From Escherichia coli (lineage in GTDB: Bacteria; Pseudomonadota; Gammaproteobacteria; Enterobacterales; Enterobacteriaceae): a stretch of DNA of 64,000 nucleotides. The DNA lies in NCBI RefSeq assembly GCF_046105845.1, contig NZ_CP151004.1. One strand, given 5' to 3'. The notes below the pieces were generated by a model that searched no databases, was not told the origin of the DNA, and saw only the letters and a program-made list of their open reading frames with translations. Positions 33,034 through 58,194 of the stretch are shown here, piece after piece (the stretch's first letter is position 1; every line of letters starts with the position of its first letter). The position numbers were made by a program, and so were the translations under genes.

Positions 33034-33363
33034 ATGGAAACTACCAAGCCTTCATTCCAGGACGTACTGGAATTTGTTCGTCTGTTCCGTCGTAAGAACA
33101 AACTGCAACGTGAAATTCAGGACGTTGAGAAAAAGATCCGTGACAACCAGAAGCGCGTCCTGCTGCTGGACAACCTGAGCGATTACATCAAGCCGGGGAT
33201 GAGCGTTGAAGCAATCCAGGGCATCATCGCCAGCATGAAAGGTGACTATGAAGATCGCGTTGACGATTACATCATCAAAAATGCCGAGCTCTCCAAAGAA
33301 CGCCGCGATATCTCCAAAAAGCTGAAAGCTATGGGCGAAATGAAAAACGGCGAAGCGAAGTAA
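33034..33363 (+). CDS. yeeX: DUF496-family protein
   Basis: 109 aa from [14 protein letters not shown]; ORF track includes a 22-codon upstream extension. Confidence 0.9.
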
Positions 33364-33378
33364 TTCCTGTTTTATTCA

Positions 33379-33403
33379 ATGAGGGTTGCCCGGCAACCCT
33401 CAT
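33379..33403. terminator. bidirectional hairpin between convergent yeeX and pduV
   Basis: atgagggttgcccggcaaccctcat perfect palindrome. Confidence 0.6.
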
Positions 33404-33463
33404 TGCTCATTGATTCTTTTCTGTGCATCACCGTCATCATTCTCATCTGAGAACCTGTCGAAA

Positions 33464-33907
33464 TTAGCGACAGCCTTCTTCTGTATGCAGCAAGGCTAAA
33501 AGTTCTGCAACTCCATTGTTATTAACCACACTGGTTACTAACACGTTGTGCGCTCCAGCTTCCCGTAACCAACATTTCACCAAAGATAGTTGTTCCATGT
33601 TGGCTAAATCTGCTTTGGTTACTACTCCAATGACCGGGCGATTCATTGACGAGGTAAAGCCTGGCGAAAAAGGTGACCACGGTGCGTCCGCATTAAGCAC
33701 CAGCGCGATAATGTCCGCTTCGCAGGCACTGACCAACAGTGCACTGTAGAGGCTGCGGTTTTCGAGGTATTCGCCTGGTGTATCAATGGTGGTCGGGGAC
33801 CAGACGATTGCCTGCGTTTTCTGATAATGAATATTTTCGCCACGCAGACATTGCGTGAGTGACGTTTTTCCGCACTGGCTGGGGCCGATGAGCATCATAC
33901 GTTGCAT
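33464..33907 (-). CDS. pduV: propanediol-utilisation microcompartment GTPase (EutP/PduV family)
   Basis: 147 aa; P-loop GPSQCGKTS; last gene of the pdu operon. Confidence 0.9.
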
Positions 33908-33911
33908 AACG

Positions 33912-34262
33912 TCAGGTTCGCGTAATGGGGCAGGCGGTAAAGCGCATCATTTCACCCAGCGTACGGGTAACCTGGCTAAGTGCATATTCGATCGCAGAAA
34001 CATCACCAGTCAGCACTACGGCACCGGTAAAACGATCAAGAAAACCGATCTCTACAGAGCCTGATTTTGTGGCGATATCACATGCGATGATAGATGCTTC
34101 GCTGGGGGTAATTGTAAGAATACCAATAGCGGAAATGGTGTCTGGTAAACCCAATTTCTTAAACAGATCCTTCCCTGGATTGGCGATGACATGTGCCAGC
34201 GTGACCTGCTTACCAGGGACATATTCCTGAATCATCCGTTCAGTTGTGTGCTGAGTTGTCAT
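33912..34262 (-). CDS. pduU: BMC shell protein PduU
   Basis: 116 aa from [20 protein letters not shown]; start overlaps the pduT stop by 1 nt; ORF track is longer by 8 codons. Confidence 0.9.
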
Positions 34263-34816
34263 TATCCCTCCACCATCTGACGCCACATGGCTCCATGTGG
34301 ACGGGCAATCACTGACCGATAGACCAACAAACCTTTTTCCCCCGCACGCTCGCTGGCGACAGAGACCGCGTTATTAACATCTGAAATATCGCCAGCAACC
34401 ACCATGTAGCATTTACCACCAATGCCAAAAGCCATATGTACGCGAACGAGAATGACATTCGCAGCTTTGACAGCACAATCGGCAGCGTCAATGCAGGCGG
34501 CGACACCCCAGGTTTCGACTACGCCGACAGCCCGGTGCTGTTCAACATGGTTAAGTCCGCTGATTGCAGAAAGGAGGCTGGGATGAATATTCGGCAGGAC
34601 AAGACTGTCGACCAGCATTTCACCAGCAAGGGACGCTCCGCTGTTGATGGCCTGTTGCACCGCGCCCACATCGCCACCGAGCATCAGCAGAAATTTTCCG
34701 GGGCATAGCGTTTTGCTGACCAGTAACTCAACGTTGGCGCTTTTCAGCATGGCGTCGCCGGTTTCCATCCCTTTCGCGATACTGCTAAGTTCTAAAATAC
34801 CTACCGCTTTCGACAT
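34262..34816 (-). CDS. pduT: tandem-BMC-domain shell protein PduT
   Basis: 184 aa with two BMC domains. Confidence 0.92.
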
Positions 34817-34818
34817 CG

Positions 34819-36162
34819 TTAACCTCTCACAAGCGTAATCGCGTTTTCTGTCACATCGCTGACCATGCCATCAATACTGGCATGAATGGGGGCACCTAAT
34901 GTGCCGTGTGGAATTTGACCTACATATTGCCCATGAACGACGCGATCGCCTTTTTGTACACACGCAATTGCGCTGGCACCGATGTGCTGGCGTAACAATA
35001 ACGTCACTTTTTCGGGTTGAGGCACCTGTTCAGACAATGGCGCATCCTGATACCACGGGATTAGGCCCAGTCTGGTTACCAGCCGTTTTACGGGAATCAG
35101 TCGATAATTTGCCATGGGATCAGCAGGATTTAAGGCACCTTCGTAGCGGAGATTTTGTGCGCGTAATTCCTGCTTAAGCAGACGGTTTATGCGCATTGGT
35201 GAAATTCCTACCGGACAGGCGACGCTGGCGCAGACGTTGCACTCCGAACAGGTGAGCGCCGTCAGTAACAGTTGTGGCGTAGCGAGCTGTTGGTAGTTAA
35301 CCGCACGTACTAATAAATGGGGGGCCAGTTCGTGACCGACTAAATGACGTGGGCAGAGATCGGTACACAAGCGGCATTGCTCACAAACAGTTTTCGCGAC
35401 GGCAAGTACGCTGCGGTCATTCTGCATTCGACGTTGGATCAGTGAATGAGAGTTGGGTAAAACCAGCAAGCCGCCAGTGGTTTTGCTGACTGGTGTGTCG
35501 AGCGATGTGATCAAACTTCCCATCATCGGCCCGCCATTGATAAAACCAGGAGCATCCACTGTTGCGCCGCCCGCCAGCGCCAGGACTTCACGTAAAGACA
35601 TGCCGATGGGGACGGTTACCGTTATTGGTTTCGCCACTGCACCATTAACGGTGAGTGTGCGGCGCGTCACTGGATACTGTTGCTCGACGGCTCTGGCAAT
35701 ATTAAGTACGGTTTGAACATTATTGACCACCACACCGACGCTAACGGGTAATGCAGCGGGTGGAACGCGGCGACCAGTTGCCATCCAGATGGTCAGCACT
35801 TCGTCTCCTGCGGGGTAAACATCGGGAAAAATATGCAGGCGGATATCCGGTGGTAATAGGGGTGTGAGTGCGTTTATTGCCAGTTGATATTTCTCTTTCA
35901 GCGCGATGATTCCGCTACTGGCCCCGGTGGCTTTCATCGCATAGTGAACACCGCGAAGCAGGCGGCTGGCTTGCTGCGCCATTAACTGTTGATCCACTTT
36001 CAACATGGGTTCGCATTCCGCCGCATTCACCAGGAACGTGTCAACACGCGCTTGTAGCTTAATATGGGTTGGGAAACCTGCGCCGCCAGCACCCACGACA
36101 CCTGCTGCCTGTACTCGCTCGCGGATGGTCTGGTCGTCGCAGGAGGTTAACTCGACGTTCAT
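34819..36162 (-). CDS. pduS: cobalamin reductase PduS (RnfC/NuoF-like flavo-iron-sulfur protein)
   Basis: 447 aa; two CxxCxxCxxxCP ferredoxin-type motifs ([25 protein letters not shown]). Confidence 0.92.
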
Positions 36163-37271
36163 AACAACTCCTCGAGCAGTTCTGCAATAGCGGTGGCATC
36201 AGCCGCACGCGGGTTGGTACGCAACGTTGCATCCGCCAGTGCCGCCTGAACCATATCTGGTATGCGTATTGACCATTCTGCTTTTTTTTCTTTCAGCACA
36301 TTGGTAAGAGTCGGTAGCTTACAGGTTGTTTTAAGCTGTTCAATATGTTGAATAAGTGCATTCAGGCTGGCGGTGTCATTGGCGTTGTCCGGGCATAAAT
36401 GGCACGTTTTCGCCAGCCGGGCGTAGCGTTTGGCAGCGCGCGGATCGCCAGCATTAAAGCGGATAACTGCCGTGAGCAGGAGCGCATTCGCCAGGCCGTG
36501 TGGCAGATGAAACTGTCCGCCGAGTTGATGAGCAATTGCATGGTTTAAACCGAGTCCGGCCTGGCTAAAGGCCATTCCTGCAAGCGTCGATGCATTATGC
36601 ATTTTGCCACGGGTGGCAAGACAATTGCCTTTTTTCACTGCAGTGGGCAGGTATTGAAAAACAATTTGCACGGCTTTTTCGACCAGTGCATCCGTGAAGT
36701 CGCTGGCGCGAGGAGAAACATAAGCTTCAAGCGCATGGGTTAAAACATCCATCCCGGTATTGGCCGTTATCGCCGGTGGCACGCTGACGATCAGAGATGG
36801 ATCAAGGATCGCGATATCCGGATAAAGTGCATTATCGAAAAGGGGATATTTAATCCCTTTCTCAGGATCGCTGATGACACAAGCACTGGTCACTTCGGAA
36901 CCGGTACCGCTGGTGGTAGGAATGGCTACGCAGGTTTCAATTTCAATGCCACACTGGCGACCGAACCAGACAATCGCTTTTGCGGCGTCCAGGGCAGAAC
37001 CGCCGCCAAAACCGATAACCACATCCGGGCGTAAAGTCTGCATTTGCGCAATGCCTTTCACCACGGTCTGGATAGTTGGGTCGGGCGTTATTTCGCTAAA
37101 AATACTAAGACGATTACTGTCGGGCAGCGCCTGATGCAACGTGTCAATAAGTGGTGAGCGTGCCAGAAAGGCATCGCAAATAATCCAGATGTGTCTATGA
37201 GAGAAACGGCTAAGTACCTTGAGACTTCCTGGTCCGCTGTATAAACGCGTCTGCAGTGAAAAAGTATTCAT
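36159..37271 (-). CDS. pduQ: 1-propanol dehydrogenase (iron-containing alcohol dehydrogenase)
   Basis: 370 aa; Fe-ADH family (GGGSALDAAK motif). Confidence 0.92.
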   Translation of the reverse strand: MNTFSLQTRLYSGPGSLKVLSRFSHRHIWIICDAFLARSPLIDTLHQALPDSNRLSIFSEITPDPTIQTVVKGIAQMQTLRPDVVIGFGGGSALDAAKAIVWFGRQCGIEIETCVAIPTTSGTGSEVTSACVISDPEKGIKYPLFDNALYPDIAILDPSLIVSVPPAITANTGMDVLTHALEAYVSPRASDFTDALVEKAVQIVFQYLPTAVKKGNCLATRGKMHNASTLAGMAFSQAGLGLNHAIAHQLGGQFHLPHGLANALLLTAVIRFNAGDPRAAKRYARLAKTCHLCPDNANDTASLNALIQHIEQLKTTCKLPTLTNVLKEKKAEWSIRIPDMVQAALADATLRTNPRAADATAIAELLEELL

Positions 37272-37281
37272 TTCCGTTTCT

Positions 37282-38667
37282 CTAGCGAATTGAAAAGCCG
37301 CTGGTTAACACGCAGCGTCGTGAGCGGGCAAAAGTCCGTGCTGACGTTGTCCCTTCTCCGGTCGGTGTTGCAATGGTAAAGGTCGTAAAGCCTTCGCCGC
37401 CGACGCCAATACCCGCCCAGGAGGGGCCGTTTTTGACAAAGATTGAGGTTTGCATAACGCGTGCGGCAAGGTTGAGCCGTGAGACGTTCTGCGAGTGCAT
37501 AATTGCCGTGTGGTGCAAGCCGTCTTCCACTTTCAGCGCCAGGGTGAGAGCGCTATCAAAATCGTTGACCTTCACAATGGGCAGCATTGGCATCAGTTGT
37601 TCACAAGTAACCCAACTATCATTGGCGTCGACAACAGCAATCAGTAGGCGCGGCGCTTTTGCGGGCAAAGGGAGGCCTGCCGCTTCCAGCAAGGCTGATG
37701 GGCTTTTCCCAACCAGTTTTTTGTTGGCGCTACCGTCTGGCAGGCAAATTGCACGCAATTTCTCCGTTTGCTCATAGTTAAGAAGAAGCGCGCCAAAACT
37801 TTGCATCTGCTGAATTAAATACTCTGCCACTGATGCTACGACAATCAGGCTTTTTTCAGCGATACACGGCAGGTTGTAATCAAATGAAGCGCCGTTGATG
37901 ATATCTTCGGCGGCTTTCACAATATCCGCCGTTTCATCGACGATACACGGAGGGTTACCCGCTCCGGCACCAATCACTTTCTTGCCACTTTTCATTCCCA
38001 TGGCGACGATCCCCGGACCGCCGGTAATCGCCAGAACGCTGATTTTAGGGTGCGCCATCATCTGTTCGGTAGCAGCAAAGGTCGGTTCAGATACGGTAAC
38101 GATCAGGTTATGAATGCCACTACAGCGAAACGCGATGTCTTCGATTATGGTAATCAGTTTTAACGAAACGTTTTTGGCTCCCGGGTGTGGACTGAAGTAG
38201 ACGCTATTACCTGCTGCCAGCATGCTGATGCTGTTGTTAATGATGGTTTCCGTGGGGTTGGTGCTTGGCGTGACCGAGCCAATCACCCCAAACGGAGAGT
38301 ATTCAAACAAAACCATGCCACCATCACCGGTCAGTGCTGTGGTGGTTAAATCTTCAATTCCAGGCGTGTTATCAAGTGCCGCTTTGTTTTTTAGGTACTT
38401 ATCTTCTTTATTTCCCATCCCCGTTTCTTTGGCGCTTTCTTCTGCCAGTTCGGTCAGGCGGGGCATTAATTCTTCGCGAATGGCGCTGATAATGGCGCTA
38501 CGGGTTTTAAGCGGGCACTGTTGAAAGCGTAAAAAGGCCTGGTGTGCTGCGCAGACCGCTTCATCAACAGTCTGGAAAATAGCGTTTCTTTGCGCTCGTT
38601 GCGTAGCGGGGGCAAGCTGCTCACGCAGAATATTGCGGATCAGTGTTTCTAATTCAGAGTTATTCAT
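37282..38667 (-). CDS. pduP: CoA-acylating propionaldehyde dehydrogenase
   Basis: 461 aa aldehyde dehydrogenase with amphipathic N-terminal extension MNNSELETLIRNILREQLA. Confidence 0.93.
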   Translation of the reverse strand: MNNSELETLIRNILREQLAPATQRAQRNAIFQTVDEAVCAAHQAFLRFQQCPLKTRSAIISAIREELMPRLTELAEESAKETGMGNKEDKYLKNKAALDNTPGIEDLTTTALTGDGGMVLFEYSPFGVIGSVTPSTNPTETIINNSISMLAAGNSVYFSPHPGAKNVSLKLITIIEDIAFRCSGIHNLIVTVSEPTFAATEQMMAHPKISVLAITGGPGIVAMGMKSGKKVIGAGAGNPPCIVDETADIVKAAEDIINGASFDYNLPCIAEKSLIVVASVAEYLIQQMQSFGALLLNYEQTEKLRAICLPDGSANKKLVGKSPSALLEAAGLPLPAKAPRLLIAVVDANDSWVTCEQLMPMLPIVKVNDFDSALTLALKVEDGLHHTAIMHSQNVSRLNLAARVMQTSIFVKNGPSWAGIGVGGEGFTTFTIATPTGEGTTSARTFARSRRCVLTSGFSIR

Positions 38668-39671
38668 TGGTTTACTCCCACGTTAATTGCCGCCATTGCG
38701 CTTTGGGCAATATCCATGTCTTGTTCAACGCTACCACCGCTGATGCCAAGCCCCCCGAGCAATATTCCGTCACGCCAGAGGGGGAAGCCGCCACCAAAGG
38801 TGACGACTTTGCCTTGCATATGGCTTTCGAGCCCATAAAGCGGCGCGCCGGGTTGCACGGTATCAGCAAGCTTGTGGGTTGCTGTTTTCATCGCCACGGC
38901 GGTCCAGGCTTTTTTCGGTGCCAGTTCACTGCTGACCAACAGGGCATCAGGCATCCGCCAGGTAACACTTTCTGTTCCGTTGGCATCAACAATGCTGATG
39001 ACAACGGGAATATGCAGTTCATCCGCGCGCATTGCCGCACTACGAATGAGCTGGTGAAGATCCTGAAATGTGAGCGGCATTGTGCGTTCCTTCAATGCTG
39101 GTGTGTGGTTGGCTTCGTGATAACGTTTTGTGATTTCCTGAATCATCAGGTTTTGATGAGCAACGTTGTCTTCCACTCGGGCGAGGGCATACAGGCAATC
39201 GGAAAGTCGGTTGATATAGTGCAGCAAAACATTCCGGACGTTGGTTTCCGTTGTCAGTTCAACCAGACGTCTTTCAGCCCGTCGAGCCACTGTGCGGGCG
39301 AAATGCATGTGGCTTGCGGCTTCAGATCGACCAGGCAGAATGAAGCTGTGAACTGGGGGGACGGCGTTCATTGCGCTATCGATCGCGTTTTCCAGCGCAG
39401 CAATTTCTTCCGTACTGATGTAACGCTGCTTCGCTGACGGCTGTTCGCTTTCACTCGCGAGTTCGGCGCTAAACCAAAATATCTGTTGTTGAATGGCTTC
39501 CAGTAAGATGCGATGGCTTTCGATGGCGGTGGCGCAATAACACAGACTGAGTGTCGCGTTCAGTTCATCCAGCGTGCCATAGGTTTCGACACGTAGATGA
39601 GTTTTGCTGACGCGCTGTCCGGTAAATAAAGACGTACTTCCTGAATCACCTGTTCGGGTATAAATTGCCAT
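38664..39671 (-). CDS. pduO: ATP:cob(I)alamin adenosyltransferase PduO
   Basis: 335 aa; N-terminal MAIYTRTGDSGSTSL PduO-type ATR domain plus C-terminal domain. Confidence 0.93.
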   Translation of the reverse strand: MAIYTRTGDSGSTSLFTGQRVSKTHLRVETYGTLDELNATLSLCYCATAIESHRILLEAIQQQIFWFSAELASESEQPSAKQRYISTEEIAALENAIDSAMNAVPPVHSFILPGRSEAASHMHFARTVARRAERRLVELTTETNVRNVLLHYINRLSDCLYALARVEDNVAHQNLMIQEITKRYHEANHTPALKERTMPLTFQDLHQLIRSAAMRADELHIPVVISIVDANGTESVTWRMPDALLVSSELAPKKAWTAVAMKTATHKLADTVQPGAPLYGLESHMQGKVVTFGGGFPLWRDGILLGGLGISGGSVEQDMDIAQSAMAAINVGVNQ

Positions 39672-39682
39672 CTTTCAGCTCC

Positions 39683-39958
39683 TTAGCGCGAAAGCGTATC
39701 GACAATGCCGACCACTGCCAGGTCGATGGCTTCGTTAGGGCCGGAAAACACATGTCTGGCGCTGGAACCACTGCTGAGGAGTACCAACTCACCAACGCCT
39801 GCGCCGACGGAATCAACGGCAACTTCGTCGCCAGTTAATGGCGTGAGAGGCAGTTCGCCGTCAGCACTGACCCGGCGAACCAGCAGCAGTTTTTTCCCGA
39901 TCAGAGAAGGTGATTTTTGCGTGGATACTACCGCGCCAGTGACTCGAGCCAGATGCAT
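39683..39958 (-). CDS. pduN: BMC vertex (pentamer) protein PduN
   Basis: 91 aa EutN/CcmL-family. Confidence 0.9.
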
Positions 39959-39961
39959 AGG

Positions 39962-40453
39962 TTACTCCTGCCTGATTAACTGAATATTTCGGGTAATTGC
40001 CGCTTCACGAGCCAGTGCGGTCACACAACATTTCCGCTGTAACACCAATATTCCCGAGCTTAACTGTGCGATATCGACATAACTTAAAAGTCGATCATGA
40101 TGTAGGTAGATCGGTTGCCCTTGTTCGTCGCACCAGCTTAGCGGTAGACGGGCGAGAGTCTTCAATTCAATGGCGTTCAGGAAATGACGCTGCAACGCCA
40201 ATTGAATGTGCATTCCCCAGGCTAACGCTTCGTGTATCTGGATTGCTGCTCGATCTGACGTTTCGTTCTCCGCAAGTTGTCGCAGCAGCGGCAGATCGAC
40301 ATATCGGATTTGTAATGACGCATACTGATGAACGCTCTCTTGAACGCTGGCGTCTCGCAGTTGAAAAACAGTCAGCACGAGTGTTTTTCCCGCACGTTGT
40401 TTAAGGCGAAAAACCACTTCGTCAACAATACGTTGCATCAGTATGTTATTCAT
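39962..40453 (-). CDS. pduM: microcompartment structural protein PduM
   Basis: 163 aa; position between pduL and pduN; overlaps pduL stop. Confidence 0.85.
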   Translation of the reverse strand: MNNILMQRIVDEVVFRLKQRAGKTLVLTVFQLRDASVQESVHQYASLQIRYVDLPLLRQLAENETSDRAAIQIHEALAWGMHIQLALQRHFLNAIELKTLARLPLSWCDEQGQPIYLHHDRLLSYVDIAQLSSGILVLQRKCCVTALAREAAITRNIQLIRQE

Positions 40454-41082
40454 GGCATTGACACCAGTGTGGCAAAAACGTCAGGGCTATCAGCCCCTGC
40501 GGCGTTGGCCTCATCGGTATCAATATGCATTTCAAGACGCATATCCGGAGAGACGCGAACAGCGACGTTTTCGAATATCAGTCGTCGCTCATCACCTTCA
40601 ATGGCAACCGCCACTTTTTCGCCATGCGTAACGCCATAAATCAGGGCATCCAGCGGAGACATATGAATATGCCGTTGCGCGACAATGACGCCAGATGTGA
40701 TCTCCAGTTCCGCAAATGGACTTATCAAACGAATCCCCGGAGTGCCGCTGAGATCGCCTGACATGCGTAGCGGGGCGGTGATCCCTAACGTTCTGGCGTC
40801 CGTCCGGGAAATTTCCACCTGACTTGCATTGCGTAGCGGCCCCAACAAGCGAACGTTGTGCAATTTACCTTTTGGTCCCTCCAGCGTAACAACCTGTTCA
40901 GCAGCGAATTGGCCAGGTTGCATTAACGGCTTTTTCTCGCTAATCGGTTGTTCAGGAAAAAGACGCAAATAATCCGCTGTTGAAAGATGAATATGACGAC
41001 TGGAAACACCCAGAGGGATAGGGCGCTCACGCATCTCATCCAGAATCTGGCTCACTGTTTCCTGCAAGGTTTGTTTATCCAC
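40450..41082 (-). CDS. pduL: phosphate propanoyltransferase PduL
   Basis: 210 aa; PduL/EutD-type phosphotransacylase with N-terminal amphipathic peptide. Confidence 0.92.
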   Translation of the reverse strand: MDKQTLQETVSQILDEMRERPIPLGVSSRHIHLSTADYLRLFPEQPISEKKPLMQPGQFAAEQVVTLEGPKGKLHNVRLLGPLRNASQVEISRTDARTLGITAPLRMSGDLSGTPGIRLISPFAELEITSGVIVAQRHIHMSPLDALIYGVTHGEKVAVAIEGDERRLIFENVAVRVSPDMRLEMHIDTDEANAAGADSPDVFATLVSMP

Positions 41083-41084
41083 TG

Positions 41085-41507
41085 CTACTCCCCTCGCTTA
41101 TTGGTGTGCAGGCAAAGTGAGCGGGGCTCACCTTTTTGCCGCTGACATGCCGGGTCAAGACACAAATTACAACTGATAATCTCTGAGGTGACGGTTGTTG
41201 CTGGTGTTTCGCTTGTTTCAACCGTCCCAGTCAATGCTTCAGTTGTGTGGGGCAGAATGCCGTCTCCCGGGCGGGCAATTACTTTGTGTGCGACAAGGCT
41301 ATTTCGCTGTCCGGCGAAACTGGCTCCCGTCGCGATCGCCGCATTAACCGAGGCGACGTCACCGGTGATTTTGATGAGCGTCCAGCCTGAGCCATTGGTC
41401 TTCTCAAGGCCAACCAGCATGATAGACGCGGCTTTTGCCATAGCGTCTGCGCAACTGATGGCGAGAGCCAGACCACTGACTTCAAGTAATCCCAGTGATT
41501 GCTTCAC
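41085..41507 (-). CDS. pduK: BMC shell protein PduK
   Basis: 140 aa; N-terminal BMC domain plus Cys-containing C-terminal tail. Confidence 0.88.
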   Translation of the reverse strand: MKQSLGLLEVSGLALAISCADAMAKAASIMLVGLEKTNGSGWTLIKITGDVASVNAAIATGASFAGQRNSLVAHKVIARPGDGILPHTTEALTGTVETSETPATTVTSEIISCNLCLDPACQRQKGEPRSLCLHTNKRGE

Positions 41508-41530
41508 GCTGTGCTCCTTAGCAAATGGGG

Positions 41531-41806
41531 TTATGCCGATTTAGGTAAAATAGCCTCAACATCACTGTGTGGGCGCGGGATGACATGGCAGGATTTCACT
41601 TCGCCAACTGCGCTTGCCGCAGCGCTCCCCGCATCCACGGCGGCCTTTACTGCACCAACATCACCGCGGACCATCACCGTAATCAGACCCGAACCAATCT
41701 TTTCATAGCCAACCAGTTGCACGTTGGCGGATTTAACCATGGCATCTGCAGCTTCAATTGCGCCAACTAACCCTTTTGTTTCAACCAGTCCTAGTGCGTT
41801 GTTCAT
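41531..41806 (-). CDS. pduJ: BMC shell protein PduJ
   Basis: 91 aa canonical BMC hexamer protein, close paralogue of PduA. Confidence 0.93.
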
Positions 41807-41825
41807 ACTGCTTTTCTCCTGTGGA

Positions 41826-42176
41826 TTATGAGTGGAGTTCCCGGAAGGGAATCCCTTTTACCAGGCGGGCAGCGTTAGAGCCAATGCTGCGCCGGGCATG
41901 GTTATCTTGTTGATACATCAGCGTAAACAGTGGCGCTGATGCCGGTAAGTTTTTGTAATGCACAATCAGTTTTTCCTGATCGCAGGCAATGCCAACCAAC
42001 AGGGGAGATTGACGAGCAGCCAGCCAGGCGCTATCGATAACTTCACCTGACGGAATGTGTTGAATGCGAAAGGGAATACCTTCCTCTTCAATGCCAAGAA
42101 GCACCTCATCCCATATAGTGATGCAGTTACCGATCTCCATGACGACGATGGCTGGTGCTCGCTCTTTACTTTCCAT
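41826..42176 (-). CDS. pduH: diol dehydratase reactivase small subunit
   Basis: 116 aa; follows pduG with an 11-nt overlap. Confidence 0.9.
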
Positions 42177-43998
42177 GAATCGACTCCTTGTGCCAGGCGA
42201 TGAGTAGCCCAGTAGCTACCGCGTTGCGCGGACCTTCGCTACCACGGATATTCCCCCGTCCGGCGACCAATCGATAATGCGCCAATGCATCGGTGACTAA
42301 CTGCGGTACTTCGAAATCCAGCGAAGAACCGCCCACCAGAACGACGAACGGAATATCGCGAATATTTCCTGCAGGGCTTACCTGACGTAGCGCGCGCAGG
42401 GCATTGGTTACGAAGACACGCTCTTTCGCACTGCGACGGACAGCGCGTACTTTTTCCAGCGTCAAATCACCGGGAATAGGCACCAGTTCGTCGGGTTTCA
42501 CTACACAGACGCGGGCAAATACATGGGGGGATAGGGGAGTAGGGAAGAACTGAACGCTGCCATCTTCATGGCGTAAGTGGAACAGGCTTTCTACTTTTGC
42601 CAACGGGTACTTTTTGATTTCTTCTGCCAGATAACGATCATTTAAGCCCAGCTCACGAACGATAATCATCGTTACCATGTCGCCCGCACCCGCAAGGTGA
42701 GTGGCAACAATTTCCCCTTTCTGATTGATGATGGAGGCATCGGTAGAGCCTGCACCTAAGTCCAGAATTGCCAGTGGACGTGTGGTTCCAGGGGTAGTCA
42801 AGGCCCCCTGAATGGCGGCTTCTGCTTCTGCGCCTCCTACCTGAACATCAACATGCAGTTTTTGCTTAATTTCACTGGCGATCATTGCCATTTGCAGACG
42901 GTCGGATTTCACCATAGAGGCAATACCCACAGCCTGTTCCAGTGAAAATTCACCTGCCAGACCGCCGGTTACGCTGACGGGGACAGAGGTATCTATCGCC
43001 AGCAAATCCTGAATAAAAATTTCGTTGCTGGGTTTGTTGGTCAGTTCCGCCATGGTCTGGCGAACATGTTCCAGCATTCCGCCGATGTTGGTGCCTGGTT
43101 CTCCCGTCACGTTTTCCAGTTTTGGGCACTCACCGACCGCTTTCATAATGGCATCGGCACCAGCAGCTACATCAACGCGCGTTGTGCGCCCGGCAGAAAG
43201 CAGTTCGATATTTCCGGCGGGTATCGAACGGGCTTTAACGTCGCCAGAAGGCGTTTTCACTACCACTGCTGAACGGTTGCCGATTAGCGCCCGCGCGACA
43301 GGAACAATATTTTTAGTCTCTTCAGCATTGAGGGCGAAAACGGTGGCAATCCCATACGGGTTAGATAGGGTTTCGATAACTTTCCCGGGAACGGCAACTT
43401 CAATTGCAGCCAGCATGCCGAGCGGAATACGATCGATGTAGAGGACTTCATCAACAATAGGTAGAGGAATTTCCAGGCGGTTATTGACCAGTACGCCATC
43501 GTCGCGTTGCAGAATAACGCCAGTCAGCTGATATCCGGCGCGTACGGAGGCGTTTATCATCGTCGCGATATCGGCAAAATCAAATGCCGATGACACCACC
43601 AGGATGTAAGGTGTGTCCGCCGGGCGTGTTAATAACTCTTGCGGAGTGATGGTGAGCCCTACGCCCAGCCCCACTCCGCCCGGAGTTTTCGGGTTGTGAC
43701 CGATCATGGTTGATTCGGTGATGATGGTTTCAGTGATGGTTTCCATCGCCACATCACCAATGACCGGAGTTGCTTCGTTGATACGAATAAGCGAAATATC
43801 GCTAACATTGATGCCGACTTTTTTCGTTGCCTGTGCGAGCGCCTCCTGAATACCATGGACGTTACGCAACGTACCTTTAATTCCGGTGGTTTCCGCCAGG
43901 GCGCTACTTACGAACGACAACTCTCCAGTTGCACTGAGCGTTGCCAGCGCAATCTCTGTTGATGAGTTACCGATATCAATGCCTGCTATATATCGCAT
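42166..43998 (-). CDS. pduG: diol dehydratase reactivase large subunit
   Basis: 610 aa; actin/Hsp70-like ATPase fold, N-terminal MRYIAGIDIGNSSTE. Confidence 0.95.
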   Translation of the reverse strand: MRYIAGIDIGNSSTEIALATLSATGELSFVSSALAETTGIKGTLRNVHGIQEALAQATKKVGINVSDISLIRINEATPVIGDVAMETITETIITESTMIGHNPKTPGGVGLGVGLTITPQELLTRPADTPYILVVSSAFDFADIATMINASVRAGYQLTGVILQRDDGVLVNNRLEIPLPIVDEVLYIDRIPLGMLAAIEVAVPGKVIETLSNPYGIATVFALNAEETKNIVPVARALIGNRSAVVVKTPSGDVKARSIPAGNIELLSAGRTTRVDVAAGADAIMKAVGECPKLENVTGEPGTNIGGMLEHVRQTMAELTNKPSNEIFIQDLLAIDTSVPVSVTGGLAGEFSLEQAVGIASMVKSDRLQMAMIASEIKQKLHVDVQVGGAEAEAAIQGALTTPGTTRPLAILDLGAGSTDASIINQKGEIVATHLAGAGDMVTMIIVRELGLNDRYLAEEIKKYPLAKVESLFHLRHEDGSVQFFPTPLSPHVFARVCVVKPDELVPIPGDLTLEKVRAVRRSAKERVFVTNALRALRQVSPAGNIRDIPFVVLVGGSSLDFEVPQLVTDALAHYRLVAGRGNIRGSEGPRNAVATGLLIAWHKESIHGK

Positions 43999-44007
43999 AG
44001 TTCGTCC

Positions 44008-44526
44008 TTAATCGTCGCCTTTCAGTTTTTTGCGCTCGACATAAAGCTCCGCAGCTTCACGGACAAATGCAGCACAAATTTTGGCCTGATAACGCCGTTC
44101 AAGATCGTCAGCAATGGCAATGAGTTCTTGCTTAGTCGAACGATAAGGGCGTAACGCATTGTAGATTTCGAGGATACGATCATCCGGTACTGAGGTAAGC
44201 TCAGCGGCGCGTTCAAAATTCATCGCCAGACGATCGCGACCAGCATCTCTGGCAATCGCAGCCTGAATACGCAATGTTTCAGGGGTAATGCGCATATCCT
44301 GGGCGGTGACGTTATCGCTTAGCACATTTTCCAGAGTGAAATCGTCGAGCGTTTTATTGGTTGCTGTTTTAACCCATTCCGGATGTTTATTTGCCAGCGG
44401 ATAATCCGTCACTTTGGCGCTCTGTATTGACGCGCTGGGGACCGCAGAAACAGGAGCTGCATCCTGTAAACTGTTCATGCGATTCAACACGTCCCTGACC
44501 ATCGACTCAATTGCATCGGTATTCAT
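44008..44526 (-). CDS. pduE: B12-dependent diol dehydratase small (gamma) subunit
   Basis: 172 aa. Confidence 0.93.
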   Translation of the reverse strand: MNTDAIESMVRDVLNRMNSLQDAAPVSAVPSASIQSAKVTDYPLANKHPEWVKTATNKTLDDFTLENVLSDNVTAQDMRITPETLRIQAAIARDAGRDRLAMNFERAAELTSVPDDRILEIYNALRPYRSTKQELIAIADDLERRYQAKICAAFVREAAELYVERKKLKGDD

Positions 44527-44540
44527 GAAGATTTCCTTTG

Positions 44541-45209
44541 TTAAAACGTCACGCGCAGTTCTTGCGGTTTTTTGCCAGTGACCACGTACTTCGTCTCTTT
44601 GATATGCAAAATGGCAGATTTAGCCTGGTATTTCGGCCGCGCCATTTGATCGTTGAGGGTCGGCACCGGTTGTGGAGACTCACGCTTTGCATAACGCGCG
44701 GCGTTTTTGCCAATCTGACGATAAGTTTCCAGCGTCAACAAAGGCGCTTGTGGGAATAGTTCCAGGTTAGACAAGGGAGGAAGACCCTGCTGGTGGATAA
44801 CCGTTGTGCCTTTCGACTGAATACCGATAGCAATACCTGAACCACTAAGACGATCGCCTTCGACTGCTACGAATGCGACATCGGACGATTTAAAGCAGCG
44901 AATCACACGGGCTTTAATGCCTTCTTCTTCAATACCAGCAATCACTTCGCGCAAGATGTTTTTATGCGGAATACCGATGATATTGACGGTTTGCGCCAGG
45001 CCGAACGCCGGGCCTACAGCAATAATGACTTCATCTTGCTGAGTGCCTTGTTGGGCTTCGCCAATTTCGGTCAGAAAATTTCCGGTATCTGGCGCGGAAG
45101 AGGCAGTTGCAGAGACAGGTGCGCGAAATGAAACGGGCTTGTCGCTGGTTTGCATTTCTGCCAGCACGTCTTCGATAATCTGACGCAGTAATTTTTCGTT
45201 AATTTCCAT
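44541..45209 (-). CDS. pduD: B12-dependent diol dehydratase medium (beta) subunit
   Basis: 222 aa with N-terminal amphipathic extension [19 protein letters not shown]. Confidence 0.93.
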
Positions 45210-45218
45210 GTCTCACCC

Positions 45219-46883
45219 TTAGTCAATTTCGTTGGGATCAAGTGCACCGGGAATATTTTTGATCTCTTCCCAGCGTTCCCCTTGCAGGCGGTAACCTGTA
45301 GCCGGTCCGGCGTAATCATTGACGTCATTGACCGCAGAGAGCACTTGTCCGTCATCGACGATGATGGCTGAGGTATGGAGATAATCGCCGGTCAGTTTTG
45401 CTTTTTGCATGTTGAGCATGTCCTGGGCGACATCGGTAAAACCGCCTTGCGCCAGGGCTTTCACCACTTCCAGGCTGTTCCGGTTTTTATTGATAATCTC
45501 CTGGGCGAACTTGATGTCTTCCACAATATTGCGCTCAGGCATATCTTTTGAACCGTGGGCATAGGTTGCCGCTTCGACTTCTTCATCGGTAATAGGCGGT
45601 AGTCCCATACCGGCAAAGACAGCCTGTAAAGCGCGAGCGGCTTTATTGCGGATAGCGATAACATCTTCTTCGCGTACTGGTCGCAGGCCGCCATCAACCT
45701 TCAGGTCACGCTGAATGACGTTGTAATCATCGAAGTCTTCAGCATCTTCGTTTGAACCAGCAAACATGTTGTCATAGTTCGGCACAGCGGAAAAACCGGA
45801 AGAGATAAAGTCGGTACCTGGCAGAAACTGCATCAGGAAACGTGCGGTACGGCGCATATCCGAGTGGGTAAAGGTCTGGTCATTACTGGAGGCGCATTCC
45901 AGATCCAGCGATGAGCAAATTAAGTTTTCCGCTAATACTGCGCGGATGCCTGATGGCACAGCTGATGGAACACCGATGCAGCTTACCGAACCATTCTGCA
46001 GGCCCTGAACGCCTGCGGCTTTGGTGATGTAAATGCAACGAGCCTCGAGATAAAGCATTGATTTGCCTTCCGCGTAACCCATCTGTACTTCAGAGCCGGA
46101 GCCGGAAGTAAAGCGCATTTTTAAGCCGCGAGACGCATAGGATGACGCGAGAAATCCTTTTGACCACGGGGTGTCATCGCCATCGGTGAAAACAGGTTCT
46201 GTACCATAGACAGAAATTGTTTCGGCGTAACAGGTGTGGCCTAACATACCGAGTTTCAGTTCGGTGGCTTCTTCCAGTGAACACTGGGTCAAGACGCCCG
46301 GACGTCCCACCTGTGAGCCGACCAGCAGGGCGATGGCGTTGAACGGGGCATAGCGAGCAACGGCAACGGTGGTTTCCTGTTCATCAAACCCGCGCCATGC
46401 GCCTTCAGCTGCGTCGGCGGCAATTTGTACCGGGTTATCTTTGACGTTGGTGACGTGAGCCTGTTGTGATGGTGTTCGACGGGCGCGCATTTTCTGCATC
46501 GCCATCATCATCTCTACCACGTTCATCAGCGAAACAACTTCGACGATTTTTGCAGGCGTCATTGCTGTGGTAAGGGGAACGATATTGCTACGTTTGACAT
46601 TTGGATCGCACAACATATTGGCAAGTTTTACCGAATCCATCGCGATGACTTCTTCTGCGCGCGCGAGATTGATGCCGTAGCGGGCGATAAAGTGGTCGAT
46701 CAGGTCAAACTGGCTGGCGGGTTTTCCATCCAGTTCGGTAACGACGCCGTTAACAATTTTGATTGATGGTTTAGGATCGTTCGGGCTTTCCATCGCAATG
46801 AAGCCTTCTTCAATCCACTCTTTAACGAAACCGTCCTGGTTGACCGGGCGTTTTGCCAGTGCTTCAAATCTTTTCGATCTCAT
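45219..46883 (-). CDS. pduC: B12-dependent diol dehydratase large (alpha) subunit
   Basis: 554 aa; matches PduC throughout. Confidence 0.97.
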   Translation of the reverse strand: MRSKRFEALAKRPVNQDGFVKEWIEEGFIAMESPNDPKPSIKIVNGVVTELDGKPASQFDLIDHFIARYGINLARAEEVIAMDSVKLANMLCDPNVKRSNIVPLTTAMTPAKIVEVVSLMNVVEMMMAMQKMRARRTPSQQAHVTNVKDNPVQIAADAAEGAWRGFDEQETTVAVARYAPFNAIALLVGSQVGRPGVLTQCSLEEATELKLGMLGHTCYAETISVYGTEPVFTDGDDTPWSKGFLASSYASRGLKMRFTSGSGSEVQMGYAEGKSMLYLEARCIYITKAAGVQGLQNGSVSCIGVPSAVPSGIRAVLAENLICSSLDLECASSNDQTFTHSDMRRTARFLMQFLPGTDFISSGFSAVPNYDNMFAGSNEDAEDFDDYNVIQRDLKVDGGLRPVREEDVIAIRNKAARALQAVFAGMGLPPITDEEVEAATYAHGSKDMPERNIVEDIKFAQEIINKNRNSLEVVKALAQGGFTDVAQDMLNMQKAKLTGDYLHTSAIIVDDGQVLSAVNDVNDYAGPATGYRLQGERWEEIKNIPGALDPNEID

Positions 46884-46901
46884 AAATCTGCCTCAGAGAA
46901 T

Positions 46902-47714
46902 TCAGATGTAGGAAGGGCGATCGTTTTTCGGTGTATCGCCGAGAGTCGAAAGCACGGTTTTACCGATTTCGCGTGCAGAGATGACCGCCTGGCGGACTGC
47001 GCCGGAGTCACCCGAGATAATCAGAATGACTTCATTGCTGTAGCTGGTGCCTTGAGCGGGGGAGCTGTATGCCACAACATCCACATTGGCGGACTTCAGC
47101 GCGGTGTCGGCCATCAGAACACCCACAGCAGCCGGAGCGCCGACAATAACGCCGCAAGCCCGTCCCAATGGTGCACCAAACGCTTTTTCCAGTGCATAGC
47201 TGGCGCGGGCGGTATATTGCAGCTCAAGATGTCCGGCTTCGTTGGCATAGACATCGCCAAAGGTCCGATCGAGTTCTTTCAGGGCGACTTCAATACCGCG
47301 TTTCACGTCGGAAACATCGTTGCCACCTAAGAGGATCAATGAGCCATGTCCGGCACCGCCTTTAGTATCCCGAGGAAGTTCAATGCTAATAACTTCAGTG
47401 TTGGTGGCTTTTACCGCTTCATCAGCGGCCATAATGTGTGGCCCTGCGCCAATACGCGCACCCAGAATGCCAATGGAACGATAGCGTTTTTCAAGTTTCA
47501 TTGCGTCCAACAGGGCGCTATCAACGTTCGCAATGACCAGACCTACAGTGTCGCCAATAGCGGTGCCAACAAATTCTGTTAACGTGCAGCTTTTTTCTGC
47601 CATAGCCGTCTCTCGTATTTGATGAGTGGTTTTCGGGAGAACCTCATGCTCTGGCGTCGCTACGCGAGCGATGACCTGCGCCATGATCTGTTTGACCAGT
47701 TCATTGCTGCTCAT
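46902..47714 (-). CDS. pduB: BMC shell protein PduB (tandem BMC domains; internal start gives PduB')
   Basis: 270 aa; in-frame internal Met at residue 38 (codon 47601..47603). Confidence 0.95.
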
Positions 47715-47995
47715 GGGTTAATTCCCTTTGGTAAGATTTTTTCGACATCGGTATGTGGGCGGGGAATAATGTGCACGGCTTTTACTTCGCCGACGTTACG
47801 CGCAGCTGCGGCACCTGCGTCTGTTGCCGCTTTTACCGCCCCGACATCACCACGAACGATGACGGTCACCAGCCCGGAACCTATTTTTTCGTAGCCGACC
47901 AGCAAAACATTTGCCGACTTCACCATGGCGTCTGCGGCCTCTATGGCGGCAGTTAAGCCTTTGGTTTCTACCATTCCTAACGCTTCTTGTTGCAT
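47711..47995 (-). CDS. pduA: BMC shell protein PduA
   Basis: 94 aa canonical BMC hexamer protein; first gene of the pdu operon. Confidence 0.96.
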
Positions 47996-48506: not shown

Positions 48507-49316
48507 ATGAATGATTCACTCAAGGCGCAATGCGTTGCCGAGTTTTTGGGCACCGGACTGTTCCTCTTTTTTGGCATTGGTTGTTTGTGCGCCCTGAAAC
48601 TTGCCGGGGCAAGTCTGGGACTGTGGGAAATTTGTATCATTTGGGGGTTAGGGATTTCGCTTGCTGTTTACCTTACGGCAGGTATTTCCGGCGCTCATCT
48701 CAACCCGGCTGTTACCATTGCTCTGTGGCTGTTTGCCTCTTTCCCTGCCCGTAAAGTGCTGCCATTTTGTGTGGCGCAATTAGCGGGTGCCTTTGGTGGT
48801 GCGGTTCTGGCATATTTTCTCTACAGCAGTTTGTTTACCGATTTTGAATCTGCTCACAATATGGTGCGTGGTAGTGCAGAAAGTTTACAACTCGCCAGTA
48901 TCTTCAGTACTTATCCGGCAGCGGCGATTAATGTATGGCAAGCTGCGTTGGTCGAAGTGGTCATAACGTCCATGTTAATGGGGTTGATTATGGCGTTGAC
49001 CGATGACGGTAATGGCGTACCCAAAGGACCGCTTGCGCCTTTACTTATTGGTATTCTGGTTGCTGTTATTGGTGCTTCTACCGGACCATTAACCGGTTTT
49101 GCCATGAATCCAGCGCGTGATTTTGGACCTAAAATTTTCACCTGGCTTGCGGGTTGGGGGGAAATTGCGATGACTGGTGGACGCAATATTCCTTATTTCA
49201 TTGTACCCATTATTGCACCGATCATTGGCGCATGTGTTGGTGCGGCGATTTATCGCTATCTCATTGCAAAGAATTTACCTGTCAATAGTGTAACGCCTAA
49301 AGAAATTAGCGAATAA
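48507..49316 (+). CDS. pduF: propanediol diffusion facilitator (MIP/aquaglyceroporin family)
   Basis: 269 aa from MNDSLKAQC; two NPA motifs (HLNPAVT, MNPARD); ORF-track start 13 codons upstream. Confidence 0.93.
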   Translation: MNDSLKAQCVAEFLGTGLFLFFGIGCLCALKLAGASLGLWEICIIWGLGISLAVYLTAGISGAHLNPAVTIALWLFASFPARKVLPFCVAQLAGAFGGAVLAYFLYSSLFTDFESAHNMVRGSAESLQLASIFSTYPAAAINVWQAALVEVVITSMLMGLIMALTDDGNGVPKGPLAPLLIGILVAVIGASTGPLTGFAMNPARDFGPKIFTWLAGWGEIAMTGGRNIPYFIVPIIAPIIGACVGAAIYRYLIAKNLPVNSVTPKEISE

Positions 49317-49518: not shown

Positions 49519-50433
49519 ATGATTTCTGCGGCGACACTTAATTCAGAACTCATTAATAAAATCGCGCAGGATTTTGCGCAGGCGACCAGCCTTGCGGTTG
49601 TCGTGGTCAATATTCACGGCGATGAAATTTCCGAGCTGTTTAACTTCACTCCATTTTGTCAGATGATGCGGCAACACCCTCAGCTAAGCACTCGATGTCG
49701 CATGAGCGATCGTTGTGGGGGCTTGGAAGCCTCTAAATCCGATCAGCCTTGTATTTATCGCTGTCATGCCGGATTAACCGATTTCTCTATTCCACTGGTA
49801 ATCGCCGGGCATTTAGTCGGTTTTGTATTGTGCGGGCAAGTTCGTCTGCGTAATGATGATGTCGATTTGGTCGATATTCTGAATGTCGATGATTGCTGGC
49901 AGGCAGATCCCGAATTACTTAATGAATTCCGCAAAGTTCCTGAGATGGATTACTCAAGAGTTATGGCCTCTGCTGATTTGTTGAAGTTGATTGTGGAAAA
50001 TTGCCTCAAAAAACAACTCAATTTTGTGGTTATTAAAGAGAACAAATCTCAGTCAGATTCGGTGCGCCAGACTCGTGCGCCTAATCCCCACGACAATAAA
50101 ATGAAAAAAGCTTTACGCTATATTGATGCGCATTTATCAGACGATTTGCGTCTGGAAGATGTCGCCTCACACGTTTATCTAAGCCCTTATTATTTCAGTA
50201 AGTTATTTAAGAAATACCATGGAATCGGGTTTAATGCGTGGGTAAACCAACAACGGATGGCCAGCGCTCGTGAGTTACTGTGCCATAGTGACTGGAGCAT
50301 CGCCAGCATTGCGCGTAATTTAGGTTTTTCACAAACAAGTTATTTTTGCAAAGTTTTCCGTCAGACTTATCAGGTTACGCCGCAGGTGTATCGACAGCAA
50401 GTGAGTGATAATGCGGCGATGGAAACGGTATAG
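49519..50433 (+). CDS. pocR: AraC-family activator of pdu/cob regulon
   Basis: 304 aa; C-terminal AraC HTH; matches Salmonella PocR as I recall it. Confidence 0.94.
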   Translation: MISAATLNSELINKIAQDFAQATSLAVVVVNIHGDEISELFNFTPFCQMMRQHPQLSTRCRMSDRCGGLEASKSDQPCIYRCHAGLTDFSIPLVIAGHLVGFVLCGQVRLRNDDVDLVDILNVDDCWQADPELLNEFRKVPEMDYSRVMASADLLKLIVENCLKKQLNFVVIKENKSQSDSVRQTRAPNPHDNKMKKALRYIDAHLSDDLRLEDVASHVYLSPYYFSKLFKKYHGIGFNAWVNQQRMASARELLCHSDWSIASIARNLGFSQTSYFCKVFRQTYQVTPQVYRQQVSDNAAMETV

Positions 50434-50544
50434 AGTAAATGCCCCAAAAAAAGAGGACGGTTTAAATAAACTCTGCAATGAATAATTAACGTTATTTACC
50501 TGTTATGGGAAAAGTGAAATCAGCTCATAACATACGCTGACAGG

Positions 50545-50760
50545 TGTGGCACATTTGTGCCTGGGAAGAGGGTGAAAATCCCTCGCAGCCCCCGCTGCTG
50601 TAATGCTGACAAACCCGAAAATGCCACTGATCGCGAGATTGGGAAGGTCGGGAGAGGATGACGCTAAGCCAGAAGACCAGCCAGTCAGTCAATACCAACA
50701 ACTTCGGTGGGAAGTGGGTTGCCCGGAAGCGTCCGGTAGAGTACCGGCGCGTCTTTATAC
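50545..50760 (+). promoter_or_regulatory. cobalamin (B12) riboswitch-like leader
   Basis: Contains GGTGAAAATCCC, GCAGCCCCCGCTGCTGTAATG, B12-box GCCACTG, GGGAAGG and AAGCCAGAAGACC elements in the order typical of cobalamin riboswitches. Confidence 0.6.
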
Positions 50761-52774: not shown

Positions 52775-52785
52775 AGAGACGTGAC

Positions 52786-55992: not shown

Positions 55993-56043
55993 TAGCCGTA
56001 TCTGTGAAGAAAGGGCAGTACCGCTGATTCTGCCCTTTTAATT

Positions 56044-58191: not shown

Positions 58192-58194
58192 ACA

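Follow-up and report, generated by a model that had tools for sequence, protein, structure and literature searches.

Gene content of the pdu locus and its flanks

Positions 33464 to 47995 of the window, the whole 64-kb stretch of E. coli DNA analysed here, hold 19 intact co-oriented genes that run from pduA to pduV on the minus strand (Table 1). An earlier note had described a complete pdu metabolosome operon at these positions, and each of the 19 ORFs is indeed a single open frame, the product of which matches its NCBIfam or Pfam family over the full length, or over the relevant domain for PduK and PduO. The operon encodes the signature enzyme, a B12-dependent diol dehydratase (PduCDE), with all three subunits scoring above curated cut-offs over their full length, and a shell set comprising the BMC-domain proteins PduA, PduJ, PduK, PduB, PduT and PduU together with PduN, whose vertex-protein matches fall below the cut-offs. 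The metabolosome core (PduP, PduQ and PduL) is also encoded, as is a cofactor maintenance set consisting of the reactivase PduGH, the adenosyltransferase PduO and the reductase PduS. PduH found no match among NCBIfam profiles, and its identity was settled by the Pfam family Dehydratase_MU.

The genes encoding the facilitator PduF, a MIP channel, and the activator PocR are oriented divergently from pduA. Between pocR and cobU no cbi gene was found other than the ORF for a CbiG fragment, the cobalamin riboswitch being the other feature there; in Salmonella this interval presumably holds the full cbiA-P block, which is absent here. Judged by its sequence, the locus is an ordinary, already known Escherichia-type pdu operon.

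Table 1. Features of the pdu locus and its flanks, with window coordinates and the evidence for each assignment.
Feature	Coordinates	Strand	Product and evidence
tmaR (yeeX)	33034..33363	+	Convergent flanking gene; NF040881 TmaR, 187 bits; neighbour conserved in Citrobacter too
pduV-tmaR spacer	33364..33463		100 nt; 13-bp hairpin at 33377-33405
pduV	33464..33907	-	EutP/PduV small GTPase, 147 aa; last operon gene; TIGR02528, 183 bits
pduU	33912..34262	-	Permuted BMC shell protein, 116 aa from ATG at 34262; NF012012 EutS subfamily, 134 bits; VCSW7 annotates 351-nt version
pduT	34262..34816	-	Tandem-BMC shell protein, 184 aa; TIGR02526 eut_PduT match below curated cut-off; VCSW7 annotation
pduS	34819..36162	-	Cobalamin reductase, RnfC-like 4Fe-4S flavoprotein, 447 aa; TIGR01945 RnfC subfamily, 256 bits
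pduQ	36159..37271	-	1-propanol dehydrogenase, 370 aa; Fe-alcohol dehydrogenase family matches; VCSW7 annotation
pduP	37282..38667	-	CoA-acylating propionaldehyde dehydrogenase, 461 aa; NF011927, 718 bits, full length
pduO	38664..39671	-	Two-domain ATP:cob(I)alamin adenosyltransferase, 335 aa; TIGR00636 PduO_Nterm, 164 bits; VCSW7 annotation
pduN	39683..39958	-	Pentameric vertex protein, 91 aa; CcmL and EutN family matches, both below curated cut-offs; annotated pduN in VCSW7
pduM	39962..40453	-	163 aa; NF011957 PduM, 243 bits
pduL	40450..41082	-	Phosphate propanoyltransferase, 210 aa; NF011652, 255 bits
pduK	41085..41507	-	BMC-H shell protein with C-terminal extension, 140 aa; BMC domain at residues 1-86; equal length in E. 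coli E69
pduJ	41531..41806	-	BMC-H shell protein, 91 aa; BMC-H matches; 100% aa identity to Citrobacter PduJ
pduH	41826..42176	-	Reactivase small subunit, 116 aa; Pfam PF02288 Dehydratase_MU, 7e-32
pduG	42166..43998	-	Diol dehydratase reactivase alpha subunit, 610 aa; TIGR04491, 959 bits
pduE	44008..44526	-	Diol dehydratase small subunit, 172 aa; NF011971 PduE, 358 bits
pduD	44541..45209	-	Diol dehydratase medium subunit, 222 aa; NF011616, 393 bits
pduC	45219..46883	-	Diol dehydratase large subunit, 554 aa; NF011979, 1071 bits, full length
pduB	46902..47714	-	Tandem-BMC shell protein, 270 aa; NF011944 PduB, 473 bits, full length
pduA	47711..47995	-	BMC-H shell protein, 94 aa; BMC-H family matches; annotated pduA in colinear strain VCSW7
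pduF	48507..49316	+	Propanediol diffusion facilitator, divergent from pduA; MIP family, 225 bits; start per VCSW7 annotation
pocR	49519..50433	+	AraC-type activator of the pdu regulon; NF047788 PocR, 554 bits
Cobalamin riboswitch	50525..50699	+	cob operon leader, retained; RF00174, 109 bits
CbiG N-terminal fragment ORF	50918..51355	+	Matches positions 1-125 of the 351-position CbiG profile, far below cut-off
cobU-cobS-cobT	51489..53865	+	Nucleotide-loop assembly, corrinoid salvage; cobU and cobS by NCBIfam matches, cobT from ORF and VCSW7 annotation

Distribution and comparison with related loci

The whole operon (at least 80% present) occurs in 636 of 5,426 complete E. coli genomes, about 12%, and the identical tmaR-pduV-pduU-pduT junction in 644 of them. 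E. albertii and E. whittamii have the pduV-tmaR junction too, as do two further species-representative genomes that carry the label E. coli, and tmaR lies directly after pduV in every Escherichia locus with a complete pduV. The window carries this Escherichia type of junction, in which the convergent pduV and tmaR stops are about 100-125 nt apart with no gene between them. Across all the pdu-carrying Escherichia genomes examined, an operon that ends at pduV is the normal gene order. The earlier note had singled this ending out as noteworthy, a view that falls with the like endings of the E. coli, E. albertii and E. whittamii loci.

The synteny comparison with pdu-positive E. coli that the note had proposed recovered the same block and junction. 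Pdu-positive strains such as E24377A, LF82, CUMT8 and VCSW7 share the same 19 genes in the same order, the pduV-tmaR junction and, on the other side, the same pduF-pocR-riboswitch-cbiG fragment-cobUST arrangement at 97.4-99.2% nucleotide identity, with ordinary allelic variation only; these strains differ in the neighbouring O-antigen region and PTS block. Alignment of the window with VCSW7 gives a single colinear match from 23189 to 54501 (98.6%), in which neither operon edge shows as a boundary, and the published pdu gene table of LF82 likewise stops at pduV (PMC6379400). The operon is not maintained in every Escherichia, because in the E. albertii type strain pduO is split, pduQ is extended and altered, and pduV is shortened. 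E. coli deer strain 48 carries a separate, IS-flanked foreign pdu island.

In K-12 the tmaR-cobU interval holds CP4-44 genes (agn43, yeeR/S/T, cbeA, cbtA and yeeW) with IS5 and IS2, in agreement with the earlier note, which placed other DNA, a prophage remnant, at this site. CP4-44 is flanked there by a 183-nt pduV stub and a cbiG-fragment stub. The same last 183 nt of pduV (33464-33646) are kept beside tmaR in about 5,417 of the 5,426 E. coli genomes, K-12 included, and in most pdu-negative E. coli the breakpoint on the right is at 51184, inside the CbiG fragment ORF. The retention of the pduV stub in nearly all other E. coli indicates that the pdu-positive state is ancestral and that the CP4-44 DNA of K-12 is a replacement. 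The description of a strain-variable block stands, with its polarity sharpened: pdu is the ancestral occupant, and K-12 retains two stubs at the edges.

A contig scan with PduV peptide patterns matched Escherichia, Citrobacter and relatives, and none in Salmonella. In 20 loci of Citrobacter, Pluralibacter, Raoultella and Pseudocitrobacter the gene order is pduV-pduW-pduX, and all 18 that extend far enough run on into tmaR-yeeA at the same chromosomal site, which indicates that pduW and pduX were lost in the Escherichia lineage. The Citrobacter loci (C. youngae, C. braakii, C. amalonaticus and others) continue into tmaR-yeeA-sbmC-dacD. From PduH to PduV, 11 of 13 Citrobacter proteins equal those encoded here in length (53-100% aa identity), the exceptions being PduK (154 aa in Citrobacter, 140 aa here) and PduV (150 aa and 147 aa, respectively). 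Between pduV and tmaR, Citrobacter has two genes that are absent here: pduW, which overlaps the pduV stop and encodes 404 aa, and pduX, which encodes 288 aa. According to the literature, Salmonella enterica LT2 (pduA to pduX, 22 proteins; PMC7181861) shares the pduA-pduV order, the divergent pocR-pduF pair, the cob adjacency and the pathway logic, whereas pduW and pduX follow pduV there and are missing here, a comparison that rests on the literature and on Citrobacter. PDU1B loci of the Axen-Kerfeld taxonomy form a recognised PDU class without the PduW propionate kinase (PMC4207490); the Escherichia locus resembles this class in lacking PduW and is a candidate member.

The absence of both genes, as first noted, extends to the whole window. 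The propionate kinase gene pduW does not follow pduV directly in the 64-kb window, tmaR coming 100 nt on, and the L-threonine kinase gene pduX is absent from the operon end; tblastn with Citrobacter PduW and PduX (E<=1e-5) gave no match anywhere in the window. When Citrobacter pduW-pduX DNA (2,174 nt) was compared with 5,426 complete E. coli genomes by distant-mode blastn, a DNA-level search sensitive to roughly 65-70% identity, no match was obtained except for one pduW, located in a foreign second pdu island of one strain, and pduX had zero matches. These results are in keeping with published reports that E. coli lacks a PduW orthologue (PMC3475010) and that TdcD is the only PduW homologue of a pdu-positive Crohn's isolate (PMC7360682).

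Origin and predicted function of the locus

The locus is very probably a vertically inherited Escherichia-type pdu operon at an ancestral enterobacterial site between cobUST and tmaR-yeeA, with pduW and pduX lost and a pathway predicted to work without them. In the proposed layout, pduF-pocR is divergent from pduABCDEGHJKLMNOPQSTUV. On the paradigm of Salmonella and Citrobacter, PocR with 1,2-propanediol would induce the operon, and a shell would be built of PduA, B, J, K, N, T, U and M, within which PduCDE would convert 1,2-propanediol into propionaldehyde. PduP and PduQ would then process the aldehyde into propionyl-CoA and 1-propanol, and PduL would yield propionyl-phosphate, with reactivation of the dehydratase and B12 recycling left to PduGH, PduO and PduS.

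The loss of pduW and pduX would have preceded the split of E. albertii and E. coli, and neither loss is predicted to disable the pathway. The role of the propionate kinase PduW would pass in this strain to the housekeeping kinases AckA and TdcD. The loss of PduX is predicted to be harmless because the only role of this L-threonine kinase is in making B12 de novo, and Escherichia would be unable to do so, the cbi genes between pocR and cobU being gone too; the cell would depend on imported B12, or on cobinamide completed by CobUST. Most E. coli would later have lost 33647-51183, often with CP4-44-type DNA in its place, leaving the 183-nt pduV stub behind.

An improbable reading joins two proposals. 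The stub (~99.8% of E. coli) would have been preserved because it has a use, perhaps as a product of 60 aa or as a buffer that protects the tmaR terminator, as opposed to simple descent from one deletion; and a single coordinated loss of pduWX and cbiA-P at the base of Escherichia would have left a propanediol regulon that once made B12 with scavenging as its sole source of the vitamin.

The block is wholly gone from most E. coli, and the split pduO, extended pduQ and shortened pduV of the E. albertii type strain would also fit a decaying relic, in which pseudogenisation began with the loss of pduW and pduX and the genes that are left no longer enable the cell to use propanediol. This is very unlikely for the operon described here, in which all 19 frames are intact, with family matches over the full length or relevant domain, and the dN/dS values of pduH to pduV, in comparisons with three other Escherichia lineages, range over 0.00-0.37, well below 1. 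PduW and PduX are moreover cytosolic and not components of the microcompartment (PMC7181861). In other E. coli that carry an operon of this type it is induced, and growth on 1,2-propanediol depends on pduC (PMC6379400, PMC9220930), a pduC deletion mutant of CUMT8 showing no growth on this substrate (PMC9220930).

Recent horizontal transfer of an island into the yeeX-cobU gap of some E. coli, with the operon cut at pduV on integration, would account for a block found in only about 12% of complete genomes and for the unrelated DNA at the K-12 site, and deer strain 48 demonstrates that a foreign pdu island can be carried. However, tmaR-yeeA adjoins the operon in Citrobacter and relatives as well, E. 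albertii and E. whittamii have the same junction, and the pduV 3' stub of about 5,417 genomes together with the K-12 cbiG stub points to deletion from a pdu-positive ancestor. The GC content of the block (0.49-0.53) is similar to that of its flanks, and no mobility genes or repeats were found at the operon edges, across which the VCSW7 alignment is one colinear match. Recent acquisition is already largely refuted, and is slightly less probable still than decay. Relocation of pduW and pduX to elsewhere in the genome is scarcely credible, for although the window gives a direct view of only 64 kb of this strain's genome, the E. coli genomes searched yielded no pduX and a single foreign-island pduW, and published protein searches gave TdcD only (PMC3475010, PMC7360682).

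A strain with an intact copy of the operon is predicted to use 1,2-propanediol derived from fucose or rhamnose, provided that B12 or cobinamide is supplied. As an accessory trait of E. coli the operon is already known, and the literature ties it to adherent-invasive strains and gut inflammation; the finding matters mainly for correct annotation and resolves no open question, while the comparison gives the polarity of change, pdu being ancestral at the site, with loss of pduWX and of the cbi genes on the Escherichia lineage.

The pduV-tmaR spacer and its hairpin

The distance from the pduV stop to the tmaR stop, previously estimated at about 100 nt, is exactly 100 nt. Remnants of pduW or pduX in this spacer were sought by local alignment with four Citrobacter-type loci, with 200 shuffles each. 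One 26-nt stretch resembles the 3' end of C. amalonaticus pduX, a similarity that 1 of 200 shuffles equalled. In C. youngae a weaker match of 10 nt falls at the same position, but 70 of 200 shuffles did as well, and the other two loci matched at unrelated positions only. From these alignments, the endpoints of a pduWX deletion can be placed no closer than within a few nucleotides of the pduW start.

The spacer hairpin has a perfect 13-bp stem that begins 13 nt past the tmaR stop, with fold z-scores of -4.15 and -3.79 in the two senses relative to shuffles. A terminator consensus scan called this hairpin on neither strand, since the stem is not followed within 2 nt by the start of a run of 5 or more U. 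A bidirectional terminator shared by pduV and tmaR was considered and dropped after folding of the E. albertii spacer, in which the hairpin pairs fully only in the tmaR sense; a U-rich tract likewise follows the hairpin only in that sense, so that the sharing by both genes suggested in the earlier note probably does not apply. The hairpin is most likely the tmaR terminator, and compensatory changes are found in its E. whittamii counterpart.

Gene content and 3′ end of the pdu operon

The 19 consecutive ORFs on the minus strand of the window, from 47995 (pduA) down to 33464 (pduV), were identified by searches against the NCBIfam protein-family library, with PduH, unmatched in the NCBIfam search, assigned through Pfam, confirming the 19 co-oriented pdu genes of the earlier note. 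All 19 frames are uninterrupted, and the family matches are full-length, or cover the relevant domain for PduK and PduO.

Features of the pdu locus and its surroundings (window coordinates unless stated)
Feature	Position	Strand	Identification or location
PduA, PduJ, PduK, three single-domain BMC shell proteins		-	NCBIfam
PduB		-	NCBIfam
PduC, PduD, PduE, three diol dehydratase subunits		-	NCBIfam
PduG, reactivase large subunit		-	NCBIfam
PduH		-	Pfam Dehydratase_MU, 7e-32
PduL, PduM		-	NCBIfam
PduN, EutN/CcmL-type vertex protein		-	NCBIfam
PduO, adenosyltransferase		-	NCBIfam, relevant domain
PduP-type acylating aldehyde dehydrogenase		-	NCBIfam
PduQ, iron alcohol dehydrogenase		-	NCBIfam
PduS, RnfC-like iron-sulfur protein		-	NCBIfam
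PduT		-	NCBIfam
PduU, EutS-like		-	NCBIfam
PduV, EutP/PduV GTPase		-	NCBIfam
Hairpin	33377-33405		pduV-tmaR spacer
pduF, then pocR			divergent from pduA
sRNA STnc230 match (enterobacterial)	49375-49458	-	RF02075, 74.8 bits (gathering score 50)
Cobalamin riboswitch	50525-50699		RF00174, 109 bits; beyond pduF-pocR
CbiG-fragment ORF	ends 51355		between riboswitch and cobU; positions 1-125 only of 351-position CbiG profile
cobU, cobS, cobT			3′ of CbiG-fragment ORF
PTS block	54830-64000		3′ of ldtA
E. albertii pduO, pduQ, pduV (cited jointly, own locus)	4238-5245, 6638-7867, 10001-10432		pduO split into 237-aa and 96-aa frames; pduQ extended to 409 aa, overlapping pduS; pduV shortened to 143 aa

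The stop codons of pduV (33464) and of the convergent tmaR (yeeX; 33363) are separated by exactly 100 nt, close to the earlier estimate, and tblastn with Citrobacter PduW and PduX found no match within the 64-kb window; the operon therefore does stop at pduV without pduW or pduX, as had been proposed. Within this spacer a perfect 13-bp hairpin starts 13 nt past the tmaR stop, with a U-rich tract behind the stem in the tmaR sense only. In E. whittamii an A-U pair takes the place of one G-C pair. The E. albertii stem pairs completely in the tmaR sense only, by means of G-U pairs; the minimum-energy structure of the pdu-sense strand does not contain it. The hairpin is read as a predicted tmaR terminator; its presence had been noted correctly, but tmaR and pdu probably do not share it, given the U-rich tract and the E. 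albertii pairing.

On the divergent side, the cob operon leader and a single gene fragment are still present (50525-51355); only the riboswitch and the N-terminal third of CbiG are left of the cbi genes, at the position where Salmonella carries 17 of them. The riboswitch may now control cobUST. The STnc230 match falls between pduF and pocR, on the strand antisense to the two of them.

The pdu locus across E. coli

In a set of 5,426 complete E. coli genomes, the yeeA-tmaR-pduV-pduU-pduT junction was found in 644, 80% or more of the 15.1-kb operon query in 636, and the segment running from pduA to cobU, with pduF, pocR, the riboswitch and the cbiG fragment between them, in 639, including the reference strain E24377A. 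The annotation of the pdu-positive strain VCSW7 agrees with the window gene by gene, and its sequence aligns with the window in a single colinear match (23189-54501, 98.6% identity). Ending at pduV, which the earlier note had implied to be unusual unless reference operons did the same, is shared by many hundreds of E. coli operons. The window locus has the standard form of an accessory operon already described for E. coli, and a PDU locus class without PduW has been recognised (PMC4207490).

The last 183 nt of pduV (33464-33646) are kept beside tmaR in approximately 5,417 of the 5,426 genomes, including K-12 and BL21, where they are annotated as a 60-aa EutP/PduV family protein. The K-12-type match ends at 33646, a breakpoint common to most genomes; in a few the match stops elsewhere, near 33637, 33640 or 33762. 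In K-12 the pduV stub is followed by the CP4-44 genes cbtA, cbeA, yeeR, yeeS, yeeT and agn43, in line with the earlier note's statement that other DNA occupies this site, and on the cobU side the CbiG-fragment ORF is reduced to its last 144 nt, next to IS5. Given these stubs at both edges, the pdu block is older at the site than the CP4-44 DNA of K-12.

Loss of pduW and pduX, and its consequences

A PduV scan of one genome per species gave 27 loci, Salmonella not among them; its operon, according to the literature, encodes 22 proteins, PduW and PduX included (PMC7181861). In all 20 loci labelled Citrobacter, Pluralibacter, Raoultella, Pseudocitrobacter or an unclassified Proteobacteria bin (one locus), the order is pduV-pduW-pduX, with pduW (404 aa) overlapping pduV and pduX encoding 288 aa. 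In every Escherichia locus with a complete pduV and downstream flank (two E. coli-labelled genomes that are separate species representatives, E. whittamii and E. albertii), pduV is followed directly by tmaR. As tmaR and yeeA also come next after pduX in 18 of the 20 other loci, the ones long enough, the chromosomal site is common to both groups. These comparisons place the loss of pduW-pduX in the Escherichia lineage, prior to the E. albertii/E. coli split, with the left edge of the deletion a few nucleotides or less from the pduW start, where PduV C-termini diverge. Local alignment of the 100-nt spacer to four Citrobacter-type loci, in search of pduW or pduX remnants, gave mixed results: a 26-nt similarity to C. 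amalonaticus pduX at its 3′ end, equalled in 1 of 200 shuffles, a weaker one of 10 nt at the corresponding place in C. youngae, equalled in 70 of 200, and similarities at unrelated places for the remaining two loci. The type strain of E. albertii, NBRC 107761, itself has a pdu operon in decay.

A distant-mode blastn search with Citrobacter pduW-pduX DNA, reaching down to approximately 65-70% identity, matched one of the 5,426 genomes, and pduX was without a match in any at this DNA level. Published protein searches agree: E. coli is reported to have no PduW orthologue (PMC3475010), and TdcD (44% identity) was the sole PduW homologue found in a pdu-positive Crohn's isolate (PMC7360682). The sole match was pduW (~75% DNA identity to Citrobacter pduW) in a deer isolate, strain 48 (NZ_CP166879.1), in which a divergent second pdu operon occupies a separate locus (1-13188 of that locus). 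This operon ends pduV-pduW, without pduX, followed by IS66 and IS21 fragments, which marks it as a horizontally acquired, IS-flanked foreign pdu island.

For pduH through pduV, dN/dS values of 0.00-0.37 against three other Escherichia lineages fit purifying selection, and the GC content of the operon is in line with that of its flanks. In LF82 the entire pdu operon is induced, with pduV the last entry of the gene table (PMC6379400), E. coli CUMT8 with pduC deleted does not grow on 1,2-propanediol (PMC9220930), and Salmonella PduW and PduX are cytosolic, outside the microcompartment components (PMC7181861). From this evidence we infer that the shell and lumen pathway of the window operon is complete. 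AckA or TdcD would handle propionyl-phosphate in place of PduW, and PduX would be dispensable in a strain without cbi genes, because those it serves are reduced to the riboswitch and CbiG fragment; the cell would rely on imported B12, or on cobinamide finished by CobUST.

Other differences around the operon

The window lacks a counterpart (22968-23189) of the yefM-yoeB toxin-antitoxin segment that VCSW7 carries between hisL and yeeZ, as well as the O8/O9-type mannan cluster of VCSW7 between wzzB and hisIE. Upstream of the his operon (1-15650), the two match only at ugd, an epimerase gene and wzzB (92.6% identity). ARAGORN found no tRNA anywhere in the window, whereas in VCSW7 and K-12 ldtA is followed by tRNA-Asn, nac and cbl. 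The window instead carries a block of PTS galactitol-type IIC genes together with an SDR oxidoreductase and regulators of the DeoR and sugar-binding kinds; of the 5,426 E. coli genomes, only 226 contain 80% or more of the 54500-64000 query.
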